Origin: Escherichia phage vB_Eco_mar004NP2
Sequence record: OR896837.1
Strand: one strand, 5' to 3'
Length of the DNA stretch: 64,000 nt
Shown here: one piece after another, positions 2,636 to 13,486 of the stretch
How positions within the stretch are numbered: the first letter of the stretch is position 1
How the letters are laid out: each line of letters opens with the position of its first letter
Notes under the pieces: model-generated
Told to the model about the DNA's origin: nothing
Database searches by the model: none
Seen by the model: the letters and a program-made list of their open reading frames with translations, nothing else
Position numbers and translations under genes: made by a program

Positions 2636-2677
2636 GCTAATCAGCCGGGTTGCTAGTCGACCTGGCTTTTATTTTAT

Positions 2678-2706
2678 TTGCTTTCAGCCAAAAATTTATG
2701 TATAAT
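2678..2706 (+). promoter_or_regulatory. sigma70-type early promoter with conserved leader (ATAAATTTGAGAGGAG)
   Basis: TTGCTT 2678-2683, 17-nt spacer, TATAAT 2701-2706; leader tgatttataaatttgagaggag precedes ATG 2735. Confidence 0.5.
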
Positions 2707-2734
2707 TGATTTATAAATTTGAGAGGAGAAAGCT

Positions 2735-2947
2735 ATGAGAGTTCACAAGGTAGATAAAGAACGTATCTATTTTATTATGGATTCTGGGGCGTATGGTTCC
2801 ATTCTCCGTGGGGATATAGCTAAATTATGTTTAGTAAATACTTGGATGGACGAAGGGAAGATTGATCCTAGGGTGGGATTGTGCTTATCTGGGCCCGCCC
2901 TTTATATTGCTAGTGCAGAAATTGAAATGTTTGAGGAACAAGAATGA
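2735..2947 (+). CDS. Hypothetical protein (70 aa)
   Basis: ORF track; SD gagaggag upstream; first gene of a translationally coupled run. Confidence 0.5.
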   Translation: MRVHKVDKERIYFIMDSGAYGSILRGDIAKLCLVNTWMDEGKIDPRVGLCLSGPALYIASAEIEMFEEQE

Positions 2948-3147
2948 AGAACGTAAAACATCTTAAATATCGCTTAATTTACAACGGACGTATGGAAACA
3001 GAAGACCTGGCCCAGTTAGCTATTAATTCTAATGAGGTTACAGTGCGTGCGCTGGCAATTGAAAAGTTGCGTGCTTCTTATGAAAATCGTGTTATGGAAC
3101 TAGAGGAGAAACTTTATGGCATTCTCGAAGCCGATGCTACCAGATAA
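2944..3147 (+). CDS. Hypothetical protein (67 aa)
   Basis: ORF track; ATGA overlap with upstream stop; SD gagga 6 nt upstream. Confidence 0.5.
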   Translation: MKNVKHLKYRLIYNGRMETEDLAQLAINSNEVTVRALAIEKLRASYENRVMELEEKLYGILEADATR

Positions 3148-3337
3148 GGGTTTAAATGCCGCTTTGGAAAACGCATTAATGCAGCATTGGGAAACTGGCT
3201 ATAAGGATGGTGTTGAATCCTGCGCTAATATGCTAGAAGTTATTGCTAATACCTTAATGGAGAAAGGCAATAAAGAATTAGCTGAGCTATTAGACAGTAT
3301 TGGGCAAAACTTCAGAGAACAGGTGGAAAATGCGTAG
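3116..3337 (+). CDS. Hypothetical protein (73 aa)
   Basis: ORF track; ggag 8 nt upstream of ATG; overlaps neighbours by a few codons. Confidence 0.45.
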   Translation: MAFSKPMLPDKGLNAALENALMQHWETGYKDGVESCANMLEVIANTLMEKGNKELAELLDSIGQNFREQVENA

Positions 3338-4148
3338 ATTAATTATTATTAGCGGTGCGGGTTTGAGTGTTGAAAGTGGTGTACGAGCTTTTCGTACTGA
3401 TACTGCTAGTGGTAAAGCACTGTGGGATGATTATGATCTAGAAGAAGTATGTAATATTCATGCCTTTCGTAGTAATTTTTACCATAAAACCCATATGTTT
3501 TACAACAAACGTCGTGAAGAGCTAAAAACTGTTGAACCCAATCTTGCACATTTGCGTATTGGTGAATGGTATAAACAATATCCAGGTCAGGTAGTAAACT
3601 TGACTACCAACGTTGATGACCTTATTGAGCGTGCTGGCGTTCCACATAGTGACATTCTGCACATTCACGGATATTTAAAAGAGGTTATTGTAGCTGATAG
3701 CTACAATAGTAGCAATAAACGGATTATTGATGTAGGGTACAATTCTATTGATCCAGATGATTATAAATGGGTTAAACCTAATGTAATCTTCTTTGGGGAG
3801 CATGCTCCAGCGTATGCAGAAATGTACAATATTTTTGATGGTATTACCAGTCAAGATATGATCATTGTGGTTGGTTGCTCTAACCAAGTAATTAACTTCT
3901 ACTGGGAATTATTTCCTGTTCTTAATTTGACTGCTGCGAAACTTATGGTTGTTAACTACTATGATAGTGCCCTCGCAGCGGAACCGGGCTATCAAGGTAT
4001 GACTCGTAGTGAGATGTACCAGCTGGAAGAACGTGGTATCCCTTACTGGAGTAAAGGTGCGGTAGATGCTTTCAACGACCCTGATTTTATTGCTCGTGTA
4101 GAAGCCCATTTAGAGGGTAGACCTTATGTGTCGAGAAGCAAGAAATAA
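3330..4148 (+). CDS. Sir2-family (sirtuin-like) NAD-dependent enzyme
   Basis: Start taken at ATG 3330 (MRRLIIISGAG) preceded by aggtgga; Sir2 motifs GAGLSVESGVRAFR, TTNVDDLIERAG, HIHGYL, KPNVIFFGE, VVGCSNQV read in translation; no CxxC zinc ribbon seen. Confidence 0.65.
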   Translation: MRRLIIISGAGLSVESGVRAFRTDTASGKALWDDYDLEEVCNIHAFRSNFYHKTHMFYNKRREELKTVEPNLAHLRIGEWYKQYPGQVVNLTTNVDDLIERAGVPHSDILHIHGYLKEVIVADSYNSSNKRIIDVGYNSIDPDDYKWVKPNVIFFGEHAPAYAEMYNIFDGITSQDMIIVVGCSNQVINFYWELFPVLNLTAAKLMVVNYYDSALAAEPGYQGMTRSEMYQLEERGIPYWSKGAVDAFNDPDFIARVEAHLEGRPYVSRSKK

Positions 4149-4240
4149 TGAATGGGATATTTTTATAGCTTAGTCTGGCACTTGGTGTTATATATATGTT
4201 GATACGGTTGAGTATGATACGTTCTTAGAAAGGAACAAAA

Positions 4241-4747
4241 ATGGAAATAAGTAATACTCCAATTATTTTTCTAGACATTGATGGGGTGCTCAATTCGAGC
4301 ATCTCCCATCATCATGCACCTGATAATGAAAAGATTTTCTTTGGAAGTGACTGGGTTTTCAAACCGCTTCTCAAGGCTTTTCAGGATTTTATTCGTCCTT
4401 CTCCGATAATGATTGTTGGAGTATCCTCATGGTTCTCTGTTAGGAATGAGATGGAGAACGTTCAGATTATGACCGGATTAGGTCTTATCGATCGTTTTCT
4501 TGGTACAACTGATTTTACTGGGGGTGGGCTATCTAGAGGTAATTCTGTTCTCCGTTTCGTTGAAAAGCATAAGCTCAAACATTGGTGTGTGCTTGATGAT
4601 GCTGGTGCTACGATGTATCAGTATCCAACGGTTATAGTCAACGGTAGGACTGGGATAAATCTTCAAGATTTAAAAGCTGTTAGCTATATGCTAGAATTTA
4701 GCCCAGATATTGAAATGTGTAAATCCTTACAACAATTTAAGGTGTAA
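4241..4747 (+). CDS. HAD-superfamily hydrolase-like protein (possible nucleotidase/phosphatase)
   Basis: N-terminal FLDIDGVLN (DxDGxL HAD motif I); SD aggaac upstream. Confidence 0.55.
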   Translation: MEISNTPIIFLDIDGVLNSSISHHHAPDNEKIFFGSDWVFKPLLKAFQDFIRPSPIMIVGVSSWFSVRNEMENVQIMTGLGLIDRFLGTTDFTGGGLSRGNSVLRFVEKHKLKHWCVLDDAGATMYQYPTVIVNGRTGINLQDLKAVSYMLEFSPDIEMCKSLQQFKV

Positions 4748-4749
4748 AT

Positions 4750-5178
4750 ATGTTCAATAATGTATTCTCTAAAGAAGCTAACCCAATTTTGGTTAACTTT
4801 TGGCGTACTCTCCCAGCTAGCCTGTATAATGAGGCTATTAACTCTTTGAAAATATGGTGTGAGAATAACGAAATCTCCTTTGCTTTTAAGGATGATATTG
4901 ATGAGGCCCCCTGTATTGGTTTAATTGTGCAGGTAGAGGATGGTCTTGAAGAGATTGTGGGCTGGAAAGAGTTAGACGAAATGGGCTTAGTTTTTGCGTT
5001 AAACTATAAGCTGTTTATGCCTGCTAAGCATCGCCTAGTTGTTAACTATAAAACTAGTGAATCTCCTGGTTTTCAGGTTAATGAACGTTATGGTTGGTCT
5101 TACTCACCGGAAGAAGTGAATGAGGGGATTCAGAAACTTCGCCGTTTCGGGTATATGATCCCAGGTTTAACTGCTTAA
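4750..5178 (+). CDS. Hypothetical protein, paralog A of a tandem pair
   Basis: ORF track; shares a C-terminal block with the next ORF (EL-x-EMGLV-x-LN-x-LF-P...GY-x-IPGL). Confidence 0.55.
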   Translation: MFNNVFSKEANPILVNFWRTLPASLYNEAINSLKIWCENNEISFAFKDDIDEAPCIGLIVQVEDGLEEIVGWKELDEMGLVFALNYKLFMPAKHRLVVNYKTSESPGFQVNERYGWSYSPEEVNEGIQKLRRFGYMIPGLTA

Positions 5179-5187
5179 GGAGGCAGA

Positions 5188-5580
5188 ATGGAACAAGTAT
5201 ATTGGCGTCAGATTGATCCTAGTTTGGTGAAGCGTGCTGAGAAGCTGCTACAACGTTGGTTGGGGGTAAAGCAAGCCTCCTTCACTTTTCCAGAGCAGCA
5301 AATAGATGATCCCTGCACTGGCGTTTTCCTGTCTGGATATGCCGGGGAATGGGAGATGGACTGGAATGAATTGTCCTCTATGGGTTTAATTGTTTCCCTA
5401 AATTTCTCTTTGTTCCATCCACGTGGTTTTGCCATATGTCGTGTGCCTGATGACGGTTGTTCGCCCCATCTTTTACAGGTGAAAGATGATATTTGGGAGT
5501 ACACTCCAGATATTCTCAAAGAAGCTAAAGAACAATTAAACCGTGTTGGGATTTATGTTCCAGGCCTAAATGATGAATGA
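5188..5580 (+). CDS. Hypothetical protein, paralog B of a tandem pair
   Basis: ORF track; strong SD taaggagg; paralogous to 4750-5178. Confidence 0.55.
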   Translation: MEQVYWRQIDPSLVKRAEKLLQRWLGVKQASFTFPEQQIDDPCTGVFLSGYAGEWEMDWNELSSMGLIVSLNFSLFHPRGFAICRVPDDGCSPHLLQVKDDIWEYTPDILKEAKEQLNRVGIYVPGLNDE

Positions 5581-5671
5581 TTTTTACTAGCTGAACTCTG
5601 ATTACCGAGTCATTTTGGCTCGGTTTTCTCTGTACTCAAAGACACTGATAGCACCTTTGGGAAAAATTTAC

Positions 5672-11532: not shown

Positions 11533-12504
11533 ATGACTAATGTAAAAGACTTTATTAAACGTTGCCAAGAAGCATATTACCAGGGAATGTCTTTAATCTC
11601 TGACGAAGAATATGATCGTCTGATTAAAAGATTTCCGTTAGAAGAAGAGATCGGGCCTAAGGGCGATATTCCACATCTGTATCGTATGTATTCTTTACAG
11701 AAAGTTTATTATAATCGTGGAGATAAACCTCCGTTTAACCCATTAGGTCAGGTAGAAACTGATAAGTTAGATGGTTGTGCGATTTCTCTGTTATATATTA
11801 ATGGCGAATTTGTTCAAGCATTAACTCGTGGTAATGGCATTCTAGGGAATGATGTCACAAGCAACGTAAGATTGCTGAACATCCCTAAAAAGATTTCCCA
11901 AAAAGTACCTACTCAAATCACTGGTGAAGTTCTAATTACAAAAGAAGTAGAAAATAAACGTAACTTTGCCTCTGGTGCTATTAACCTCAAGGATAGAGAT
12001 GATTTCGTACAACGTATCGGGGAAGGTGGTTTAATCTTCGTTGCATATGGTATCCAGTGTTCTGCTGAATCTGTAGGTATTACAGAAGCGTATTTAAAAG
12101 ATATGCTTTGGCTGGAGAATGAGAACTTCTTAACAGTTGTTAATGTGCGTTCCTTCTTTAAATGGATTCCGACGGACGGTAAAGTTGTTCGTATCAATGA
12201 CAATAACAAATTCTTCCGAGAAGGCTGGACTAATAAATTCCCTCGTGGAGCATTCGCTATTAAAGAGGATGAAGAAGGCGAAATTACAACTCTTACTAAA
12301 GTTGAATGGCAGGTAGGGGCTTCTGGTAAAGTAACTCCAGTTGGTTATTTTGAACCGGTAATTATTGATGATGCTACAATTGTTAAAGCGACTCTTAATA
12401 ACGTTGATTATATTAACTCTCTCGATCTAGAGATCGGTTGCCAGATTCGAGTGATTCGTGCTGGTGGTGTAATCCCGTGTATAGTAGAGCGAGTATACGA
12501 TTAA
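11533..12504 (+). CDS. NAD-dependent DNA ligase, adenylation-domain subunit (split ligase, part A)
   Basis: KxDG adenylation motif (ETDKLDGCAIS) and LigA-like N-terminus; ends before the Zn-finger/HhH/BRCT portion, which is encoded by the next gene. Confidence 0.8.
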   Translation: MTNVKDFIKRCQEAYYQGMSLISDEEYDRLIKRFPLEEEIGPKGDIPHLYRMYSLQKVYYNRGDKPPFNPLGQVETDKLDGCAISLLYINGEFVQALTRGNGILGNDVTSNVRLLNIPKKISQKVPTQITGEVLITKEVENKRNFASGAINLKDRDDFVQRIGEGGLIFVAYGIQCSAESVGITEAYLKDMLWLENENFLTVVNVRSFFKWIPTDGKVVRINDNNKFFREGWTNKFPRGAFAIKEDEEGEITTLTKVEWQVGASGKVTPVGYFEPVIIDDATIVKATLNNVDYINSLDLEIGCQIRVIRAGGVIPCIVERVYD

Positions 12505-12554
12505 TACATAACCCTTTGCTACCCATCTACCATATCGGAATTATAAAGTGGTTA

Positions 12555-12583
12555 TTGACATTTTCGCCGCTTAGGTATATACT
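12555..12583 (+). promoter_or_regulatory. sigma70-type promoter in the ligase A/B intergenic region
   Basis: TTGACA 12555-12560, 17-nt spacer, TATACT 12578-12583. Confidence 0.4.
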
Positions 12584-12647
12584 ATTATCATTCAGTTGAG
12601 GGATAGAAAGTTATGGCGAGGGTAAGCAAAGTTAGTTAAAATTGTAG

Positions 12648-12676
12648 TTGCTAAATGCTTAAATACTTGCTATAAT
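12648..12676 (+). promoter_or_regulatory. sigma70-type promoter immediately upstream of ligase subunit B
   Basis: TTGCTA 12648-12653, 17-nt spacer, TATAAT 12671-12676, leader atttatataaattgataaggaag. Confidence 0.45.
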
Positions 12677-12706
12677 ATTTATATAAATTGATAAGGAAGA
12701 AATTTG

Positions 12707-13486
12707 ATGAAAATCGAAATTCCAACACAATGTCCCTCTTGTGGTTCTAAGCTAGATCTTGTCAACGGACAATTATTCTGTCGGAATAAGTCCAACTGTC
12801 CAGCGCAATCAAGTAAGTTAATTGAGAACTTCTGTTCAAAAATGAAGTTAAAGGGCTTTGGCCCAAAAACTATTGAGAAGCTGGAGCTGACGAAGATTTC
12901 AGAACTATTTTACCTAACCGAAGAAGATTTGGTTAGAGCCGTGGGTAGCAAGGTTGCCGCTAAGTTAATTAGCGAATTAAATACTAAAGTTCGCGGAGAC
13001 ATTGACTTTGGTTCAGTTCTCGGTTCTTTAGGAATCCCTCTAATTGGAGAGGTTGCAGCAAAGAAATTATCCCAAAATTACACTAGCTTCCATGATGTGA
13101 AGGCTGACGGCAAGGCTGGAGAAAATTACAAAGCCTGGCTAAATTCCCCACAAGGCAAGGATGTTATCGAACTACCGTGGAAATTTTCAACTGGTATTAA
13201 GGGCACTAAAGCTGACGTCATCATTACAGATGAATTAGTTGCCCAGCCAAATGGAATCGCGGTATGTATTACCGGATCTTTGCAAGATTTTGCAAATCGA
13301 ACGGATGCAACAAACTATTTAGAAGGTCTAGGGTATACGGTTAAGAAATCCGTTACTAAAGACGTCAAATACCTAATCTGTGAGGATGAATCAAAACGTT
13401 CTTCCTCATCTTATAAGAAAGCCGAAACGAATGGGATAGAAATCCTGTCGATTAAAGAACTATTGGAGAAAAATAATAATGTCTAA
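12707..13486 (+). CDS. NAD-dependent DNA ligase, C-terminal subunit (Zn finger, HhH, BRCT; split ligase, part B)
   Basis: ORF track 12704 (TTG); ATG 12707 preferred; CPSCGSKL...CRNKSNC zinc finger then helix-hairpin-helix-like and BRCT-like C-terminus. Confidence 0.8.
   Translation: MKIEIPTQCPSCGSKLDLVNGQLFCRNKSNCPAQSSKLIENFCSKMKLKGFGPKTIEKLELTKISELFYLTEEDLVRAVGSKVAAKLISELNTKVRGDIDFGSVLGSLGIPLIGEVAAKKLSQNYTSFHDVKADGKAGENYKAWLNSPQGKDVIELPWKFSTGIKGTKADVIITDELVAQPNGIAVCITGSLQDFANRTDATNYLEGLGYTVKKSVTKDVKYLICEDESKRSSSSYKKAETNGIEILSIKELLEKNNNV

Follow-up and report, generated by a model that had tools for sequence, protein, structure and literature searches.

A sirtuin-type protein without zinc ligands encoded in the accessory operon of a T5-like phage

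The sirtuin gene and its product

The window analysed here, a stretch of 64,000 nucleotides recorded as Escherichia phage vB_Eco_mar004NP2 (OR896837.1), carries between positions 3330 and 4148 on the plus strand a gene for a 272-amino-acid protein of the Sir2/sirtuin family, the orthologue of T5.102 of phage T5. The window has a G+C content of about 39% and a T5-like gene order, with nrdD, a D5-type helicase, a split DNA ligase dependent on nicotinamide adenine dinucleotide (NAD), replication genes and then structural genes. Between 2700 and 5600 its nucleotide identity to Escherichia phage vB_Eco_mar004NP2, a Tequintavirus, is 99.6%, and 446 phage records match this section, while homologues of the sirtuin itself are present in about 1000 phage records. 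The start codon is the ATG at 3330, which is preceded by AGGTGG and overlaps the stop codon of an upstream open reading frame (ORF) of 73 amino acids (ATGCGTAG). A TTG lies in frame at 3300 and would lengthen the protein by 10 residues, but it is the ATG that both the homologues and RefSeq use (coding sequence of 819 nt in NC_048205 and T5). The coordinates coincide exactly with those of the annotated HOV62_gp011, 'Sir2 (NAD-dependent deacetylase)', likewise of 819 nt, and T5.102 in the T5 reference record bears the identical name together with an InterPro-based note.

The assignment as a sirtuin is much too strong to be due to chance. The protein matches Pfam SIR2 (PF02146) with E 2.7e-25 and 89.8 bits, at a cutoff of 24, over positions 1-178 of the 180 of the profile, PHROG 2162 with E 3.7e-121 and Escherichia coli CobB (1s5p) with E 1.3e-17, and the structural model and the fold search described below agree with these matches. 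It is 96.7% identical to the protein of phage SP15 and 94% identical to a protein encoded on a T5-like contig. The original prediction, made from the letters of the sequence, had placed a sirtuin-like gene at this position, and a genuine sirtuin-fold ORF is indeed found there, with all four of the motifs that it had quoted, GAGLSVESGVRAFR (residues 9-22), TTNVDDLIERAG (92-103), HIHGYL (111-116) and KPNVIFFGE (149-157).

Catalytic and NAD+-binding residues

In an alignment of 73 homologues, which are 54-96% identical to the window protein, 45 positions are invariant, every canonical sirtuin position among them. The NAD-binding motif GAGLS...SGVRAFR (residues 9-22; 3354..3395, plus strand, as are all features of the gene) retains G9, A10, G11, S13, S16, G17, F21 and R22 throughout, and W32, P70, N71 and H74 are equally fixed. 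A TTNVD motif (3603..3617), with T93, N94, V95 and D96 invariant, stands in place of the canonical TQN(I/V)D, its Gln being replaced by Thr. The catalytic His113 within HIHG (3666..3668) aligns to the His of HMHG in CobB and is invariant together with G114, K149 and P150, the FGE substrate-cleft motif at residues 155-157 (3792..3800) lies in an invariant setting of F154, F155 and E157, and D176, G182, S184 and N209 complete the series. The catalytic His and Asn, on whose presence the original prediction had staked its case, are retained in all 73 homologues (H113, N94 and also D96). As far as can be read from sequence comparison, this pattern indicates purifying selection on catalysis.

The pair Y58-x-x-R61 (3501..3512), which aligns to FYNARR of CobB and corresponds to the class III anion-binding pair Y92/R95 of CobB and Y102/R105 of SIRT5, is invariant in the same alignment and is kept in 110 of 149 more distant representatives. 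The Tyr and Arg of (F)YxxRR in SIRT5 and CobB bind the carboxylate of succinyl- or malonyl-lysine. Two cysteines are found in the whole protein, C41 (3450-3452), present in 99% of the close family, and C183 (3876-3878), present in 88%, which replaces the Thr of the canonical GTS to give GCS.

Loss of the zinc ligands with retention of the fold

Neither of these two cysteines lies within the small domain, in which canonical deacetylases carry the CxxC...CxxC zinc module. Residues 114-149 are cysteine-free and a zinc-type Cys column is absent in 121 close homologues, so that the lack of the zinc module, a central point of the original prediction, is borne out. The zinc-cysteine stretch of CobB (VRCSQSG...KCHCCQF) aligns to the cysteine-free VIVADSYNSSNKRIIDVGYNSIDPDDYKW. 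What is left, according to the alignment and to the strands predicted by AlphaFold2, is a small beta module at residues 114-149 (3669..3776), a remnant of the zinc ribbon with a clade-specific D-V-G-Y motif, in which three beta strands (114-122, 131-134 and 147-152) are predicted with a local confidence, pLDDT (the predicted value of the local distance difference test), above 90.

When 1.84 billion representative proteins were searched exhaustively with phmmer, 3064 relatives were obtained at E<=0.001, and the motifs were compared in the best 150 of these. The nearest clusters have TTNVD, the D-x-G-Y motif and the absence of cysteines in common, and from about E 1e-38 downward most of these relatives possess TQN(I/V)D and CxxC...CxxC with the IGY motif still present. 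Where the zinc-bearing relatives have their first CxxC the window protein has V-A-D-S in the alignment, and the second knuckle has been deleted from it. As the relatives with CxxC...CxxC share the IGY motif, the module appears to have been kept and only the ligands lost. The Gln/Thr exchange in TQNID tracks the zinc ligands, with 72 Gln/zinc, 34 Thr/no-zinc, 16 Gln/no-zinc and 8 Thr/zinc combinations (Fisher p 1e-11). Among the nearest 150 clusters (50% identity) about 40% are of the zinc-less form. By these comparisons the lack of zinc is derived, and it is common in the radiation of small phage-type sirtuins and not peculiar to this gene.

Phage sirtuins of this kind have been modelled before. 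In the Sir2/CobB proteins of the Vibrio phages phi-Grn1 as well as phi-St2 the zinc ligand is absent, as it is in KVP40, the catalytic His and the acetyl-lysine tunnel are conserved, and T5 was listed among the phages with the gene; the role proposed, as a prediction, was activation of acetyl-CoA synthetase (Skliros et al. 2016, PMC5107563). These sirtuins of 'schizoT4-like' Vibrio phages are homologous to the window protein (phi-Grn1 is 35.5% identical, E 9e-39) and zinc-less like it, but they belong to another phage family, stand in an NAD salvage context and were given a different role.

As a separate observation, a 10-bp perfect inverted repeat, TATTGTAGCT-ATC-AGCTACAATA, lies inside the gene at 3686-3708 and resembles a terminator on the minus strand. 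It coincides exactly with the coding position of the first zinc knuckle (VIVADSYN), probably by chance.

Fold and family placement

An AlphaFold2 model built on the alignment of the 73 homologues is confident (pLDDT 90.9, predicted template modelling score, pTM, 0.88), and a Foldseek search against the Protein Data Bank (PDB) placed CobB at the top (E 1e-17, target-normalised TM 0.84), followed by Sir2Af1 and human SIRT5, all of them lysine deacylases. The model and the similarity to CobB support a two-domain fold composed of a Rossmann domain and a small helical/beta domain. These nearest sequence and fold matches, which suggest a placement in class III, resemble the window protein in having a Rossmann domain, a helical module and a small module of three strands. 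Shared as well are the catalytic His, Asn and Asp, FGE and the Tyr/Arg pair for the acyl carboxylate. The window protein differs from them in that identity is just 20-26%, the zinc cysteines are absent and the second zinc knuckle is deleted, TTNVD replaces TQNID and GCS replaces GTS, a DxGY motif is present and the C-terminal region is longer. The best NCBIfam matches are CobB-type models, scored far under their curated cutoffs (NF001753 with 100.7 versus 243 bits, NF040867 with 90.1 versus 320), which rules out a CobB orthologue and makes the protein CobB-like only.

A second candidate class, the Sir2 NADases of bacterial defence, was also rejected. No match to the PADLOC defence-type Sir2 models was obtained at E<=0.01 and defence-type Sir2 proteins are not among the top PDB fold matches, the nearest folds being deacylases. 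ThsA, DSR1/2, SIR2-HerA and SIR2-APAZ (Pfam SIR2_2 type) have the sirtuin Rossmann core, NAD+ as the substrate and the lack of zinc in common with the phage protein, but are effectors of host defence, whereas the phage sirtuin is a single-domain phage protein which possesses the beta module. Defence sirtuins and FAM118 proteins are without the entire beta module (PMC12700824). Domain fusions that might hint at function were sought in ten longer relatives, but apart from a second SIR2 domain and repeats of the WG or RHS type these carried no further domain.

The operon in the window

The sirtuin gene is part of a co-directional run on the plus strand bracketed by two terminator-like hairpins. 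The upstream boundary, after nrdD, is a hairpin at 2643..2667 with a 10-bp stem containing six GC pairs and a subsequent T-run, and T5 has a terminator at the same relative place. Just downstream, TTGCTT and TATAAT spaced by 17 nt (2678..2706, plus strand) may form a sigma-70 promoter. A consensus scan missed this candidate because of its weak -35 element; T5 has a promoter annotated equivalently, between the nrdD terminator and T5.100. The downstream boundary is a hairpin at 5604..5624, again with a T5 terminator annotated at the equivalent place. The accessory, co-directional character of the run which the original prediction had described is thereby upheld, T5 bracketing the same genes with a promoter and a terminator, and an 'early' timing would follow by analogy with the T5 genetic map.

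The run starts with an ORF of 70 amino acids (2735..2947), which has no Pfam match and belongs to phrog_20147. It is followed by an ORF of 67 amino acids (2944..3147; phrog_5236), kept upstream of the sirtuin in Tequintavirus-type T5-like loci (L001, L004-L026 and L042-L045), and by the 73-amino-acid ORF whose stop codon overlaps the sirtuin start (3116..3337; phrog_5827). Downstream of the sirtuin lies a HAD-family phosphatase of the HAD_SAK_2 type (4241..4747), the orthologue of T5.105, with a match to PF18143 (E 6.7e-20) and the DxD nucleophile motif in FLDIDGVLN. Two DUF7415 proteins follow, paralogue a (4750..5178; T5.106), matching PF24187 with E 2.6e-35, and paralogue b (5188..5580; T5.107), which are 31% identical to each other (E 2e-19). 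A HAD-like hydrolase and a tandem paralogue pair in the same run had been recognised in the original prediction as well. The structure model of DUF7415 is confident, yet no solved fold relative was found. T5.102 and its Demerecviridae orthologues (HOV62_gp011, SP15) represent the same gene, located between nrdD and a D5-like helicase with the HAD and DUF7415 genes downstream; T5 differs by two additional small ORFs (T5.103 and T5.104) between the sirtuin and the HAD gene and otherwise in nothing of substance.

RefSeq records, among them those of T5.105 and HOV62_gp010, give the HAD_SAK_2 gene at 4241-4747 the wrong name, 'Sir2 (NAD-dependent deacetylase)'. The 92-residue family PHROG 18062, which likewise bears the name Sir2, hits the HAD protein in its C-terminal half with E 1.7e-56 and residues 169-216 of the sirtuin only weakly. 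The mislabelling is a propagated annotation error, which probably goes back to chimeric Sir2/HAD deletion remnants such as the 'defective Sir2' of phage DT57C.

Farther downstream the NAD-dependent DNA ligase is split into two plus-strand genes, one for the adenylation and OB domains (11533-12504) and one for the HhH and BRCT domains (12704-13486), with about 200 nt between them. The window contains no tRNA genes, the tRNA cluster being located elsewhere in the genome. In the window and the rest of the genome (L068) tblastn at E<=1 detected no homologue of an Rnl1-type RNA ligase, cREC, the kinase, NADAR or NAD salvage genes.

Neighbourhoods in other phages

Fifty-nine loci were fetched from IMG/VR and their neighbourhoods compared by tblastn. 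The HAD gene lies directly 3' of the sirtuin in 28 of the 31 T5-like loci and is missing in the other three. In rV5/Mydo-like phages, the sirtuin orthologues of which are about 50-63% identical to the window protein, the run consists of Metallophos, a T4-type RNA ligase 1, cREC, a P-loop kinase, one small gene, the sirtuin and an ATP-dependent DNA ligase. Among lineages outside T5 and rV5, Pfam places Rnl1, Nampt or Nuc_deoxyri_tr2 beside some sirtuins and DUF7275 or a C5 DNA methylase beside others; one distant relative (L062) adjoins an Rnl1-type ligase and another adjoins Nampt. Linkage to RNA repair thus recurs, in at least three phage lineages, but is not universal, and HAD_SAK_2 is also found without a sirtuin in a T4-like phage.

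Within about 6 kb on each side of the rV5/Mydo-like sirtuins of L002 and L003 (similar to Klebsiella phage KpS8) NAPRT/Nampt and PRPP synthetase genes are located upstream and NADAR downstream. NAD-consuming and NAD-rebuilding functions are clustered around the sirtuin in these phages, and none of those flanking genes occurs in the T5-like genome. A second recurring partner of sirtuins, besides the RNA-repair genes, is Nuc_deoxyri_tr2 (PF15891), which is found beside two unrelated distant relatives (L060, 8713-9198, and L064, 3859-4380), one of them carried by a jumbo-phage contig of 279 kb, the other by a small contig of phage-like character.

Allelic variation and dispensability

The gene is degraded in some viable phages. 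DT57C (L066; NC_027356, 46493-46765) retains a 90-amino-acid 'defective' remnant which fuses pieces of the sirtuin and the HAD protein, and copies in Yersinia phage phiR2-01 (216 amino acids), Klebsiella phage KPN4 (189 and 95 amino acids) and Eps7 (71 amino acids) are apparently truncated or split, as judged from target lengths in BFVD. Natural loss-of-function alleles of this kind can be used as ready-made nulls.

In the Epseptimavirus-like loci L042-L045 the sirtuin is 52-53% identical to the window protein and the HAD protein 89-90%, with NrdD 98% identical in L043-L045. Relative to L043, an IMG/VR T5-like contig, nucleotide identity is roughly 35-75% over 2686-4240, a patch which comprises the small ORFs and the sirtuin and is sharply bounded by flanks of 85-95% identity in nrdD and beyond 5650. 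NrdD itself occurs in two forms among T5-like loci, about 60% and about 100% identical. The pattern of sequence divergence suggests replacement of the sirtuin allele as a cassette among Markadamsvirinae, and the degraded copies in viable phages together with a divergent sirtuin patch within conserved flanks argue that the gene is accessory and exchanged in this way.

Discussion

With its sirtuin fold, an intact NAD+ pocket, the general-base histidine, a degenerate zinc ribbon and conservation across phage lineages, the protein encoded at 3330-4148 is, judged from alignment and structural model, very probably an active NAD+-using sirtuin. It would be a sirtuin of the CobB/SIRT5 (class III-like) type, able to catalyse without zinc and made from the accessory operon of a T5-like phage, and its zinc-free beta module may be stabilised by its own packing. 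Following the standard sirtuin mechanism, NAD+ would be bound, nicotinamide released and ADP-ribose transferred to an oxygen nucleophile of the substrate, with H113 activating the ribose 2'-OH.

As to the substrate, acylated lysines of host or phage proteins are the assignment which we tentatively place first, in full awareness that it is open to serious doubt. Lysine deacylation is preferred because deacylases come nearest to the protein in both sequence and fold, FGE and the residues of the tunnel are retained and the class III Tyr/Arg pair is invariant. The enzyme could act as a deacetylase or alternatively, in view of the invariant anion pocket of Tyr58 and Arg61, as a deacylase of the desuccinylase or demalonylase type, and would then reset host acylation soon after infection. 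Several points weigh against this assignment. Canonical sirtuins reportedly need the zinc module for deacetylation (PMC12700824), and a literature search found no activity data for any phage sirtuin. A score of 100.7 versus 243 bits on CobB models means that the function of CobB is not simply transferable, the Gln of TQNID is replaced by Thr, and the genes found around the sirtuin in at least three phage lineages speak for processing of RNA ends and not for modification of proteins. Finally, the PDB contains mostly deacylases, so that the argument from the nearest structures is partly a sampling effect. Behind lysine deacylation we rank, in this order, a Tpt1-like activity on RNA, ADP-ribosyl transfer, NAD+ consumption in the service of anti-defence and a dead remnant.

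That the sirtuin acts in RNA repair, possible if rather unlikely in our estimate, was proposed from comparative genomics, in which most viral sirtuins form a distinct clade with three types of neighbourhood (Iyer, Burroughs, Anantharaman and Aravind 2022, PMC9503650). Members of this clade were suggested to act like KptA/Tpt1 in removing 2'-phosphates from RNA, and section 3.7.3 of that work gives 'Escherichia phage SP15' as the example of the third type, a sirtuin with a Swiss-army-knife HAD phosphatase. The window protein clearly belongs to the same family, as it is 96.7% identical to that published example (PMC9503650) and has the same HAD_SAK adjacency, and the neighbourhood of type 2 (V5/Mydo) was reproduced here for orthologues of 60% identity; differences are that the RNA ligase is absent from this genome and that the function of the clade is a prediction. 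In such a pathway the sirtuin would use NAD+ like Tpt1/KptA to ADP-ribosylate and remove an RNA 2'-phosphate, for example on a tRNA cut by a metal-independent host anticodon nuclease, and the adjacent HAD_SAK protein would remove phosphates from the ends or act on the ADP-ribose cyclic phosphate that is formed.

Several observations fit such a role. The direct neighbour in 28 of 31 T5-like loci, HAD_SAK_2, is a family defined from predicted RNA-repair proteins, the 60%-identical rV5/Mydo orthologue is embedded in the run of Rnl1, cREC, kinase and Metallophos genes, and the distant relative L062 adjoins an Rnl1-type ligase. The invariant Tyr/Arg pair could hold a phosphate instead of a carboxylate. 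Furthermore, the two-step chemistry of Tpt1 parallels that of sirtuins. With Tpt1/KptA the phage sirtuin would have a hypothetical functional similarity only, namely NAD+-dependent removal of an RNA 2'-phosphate via an ADP-ribosylated intermediate, as fold and sequence are unrelated. On the other hand, the proposal is drawn from gene neighbourhoods alone, we know of no sirtuin that acts on RNA, and the close family is acidic (median pI 5.2, range 4.6-6.1), unlike typical RNA-binding enzymes. The Rnl1-type ligase, cREC, the kinase and NADAR are absent from the genome, so that any repair would have to draw on enzymes of the host. The linkage is neither universal, in view of the three T5-like loci without the HAD gene and several lineages without any RNA-repair neighbour, nor exclusive, given the HAD_SAK_2 gene of the T4-like phage, and the features of the lysine tunnel, FGE and hydrophobic residues, are conserved. 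The more specific combination, in which sirtuin and HAD protein together form a Tpt1/KptA analogue on the sirtuin fold that counters host anticodon nucleases with the Tyr/Arg pocket reused for phosphate, must be called doubtful.

It is improbable that the protein is a mono-ADP-ribosyltransferase which modifies a host protein or another macromolecule and so takes over host functions, with an outcome like that of SirTM or of Alt/Mod of T4. The NAD+ site is intact and some sirtuins are ADP-ribosyltransferases (PMC9503650), and the altered TQNID and the degenerate small domain could shift the outcome of the reaction. Unlike in SirTM systems, however, the Macro-domain partner is absent from the operon, where the neighbours are HAD_SAK_2, DUF7415 and small ORFs, SirTM structures are not among the top fold matches, and the class III acyl pocket is conserved.

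The original prediction had further raised consumption of NAD+ and a bearing on NAD-depleting host defences, and for this part of its interpretation no support was obtained, in contrast to the intact sirtuin, the lack of zinc cysteines and the co-directional run. An enzyme which depletes NAD+ or destroys NAD-derived immune signals against NAD-targeting defences might be expected of an NAD+-binding protein encoded in an accessory early region, and the rV5-like orthologue near Nampt/NAPRT, PRPP synthetase and NADAR and the distant relative adjoining Nampt could be taken to point that way; salvage genes elsewhere fit equally well with recycling of the nicotinamide released by the sirtuin, though. 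The protein has no PADLOC match and its fold is nearest to deacylases, the genome is without NAD salvage genes, and depletion of NAD+ would harm the phage, whose own DNA ligase (11533-13486) is NAD-dependent. We consider such a role very improbable.

Least credible of all is that a cellular sirtuin was captured and is now decaying without function, zinc loss having been the first step. The gene is dispensable, as seen in the 90-amino-acid remnant of DT57C and the truncated or split copies of phiR2-01, KPN4 and Eps7. Yet in two phage families 45 positions, all catalytic ones among them, do not vary even in homologues with identities as low as 54%, the model is confident (pLDDT 90.9), and zinc-less forms at about 40% of the nearest clusters represent a stable state and not a recent lesion.

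As first noted, the finding does not go further than the annotations on record and the comparative genomics already published. In T5 and hundreds of relatives the gene has borne the name Sir2 for a long time, zinc-less forms have been described (PMC5107563), as has the sirtuin-HAD neighbourhood (PMC9503650), and with the gene, the lack of zinc and the HAD partnership already known the novelty that had been implied falls away. A literature search found no experimental study of phage sirtuins, of T5.102/T5.105 or of a link between sirtuins and Tpt1, and the remaining interest is the substrate, a question already stated. What the present analysis adds is that class III deacylases are the closest relatives, that the Tyr/Arg pair is invariant and that the fold of the ribbon is kept without its ligands; zinc loss appears as a derived state, the genome combines an NAD-dependent ligase with the lack of an Rnl1-type RNA ligase, and some T5-like phages with a degraded copy of the gene are viable.

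The sirtuin has homologues in about 1000 phage genome records, including that of the model phage T5, with a substrate so far only predicted. If lysine deacylation is true, lytic phages would rewrite the acyl-proteome of the host early in infection, and a canonical sirtuin would work without structural zinc. If on the other hand RNA is the substrate, the chemistry of sirtuins would be extended to nucleic acids with the first sirtuin shown to act on RNA, an idea itself published as a prediction (PMC9503650), and a new RNA-repair arm of phages against anticodon nucleases would constitute a novel counter-defence. As T5 is genetically tractable and natural nulls such as DT57C exist, the question is directly testable.

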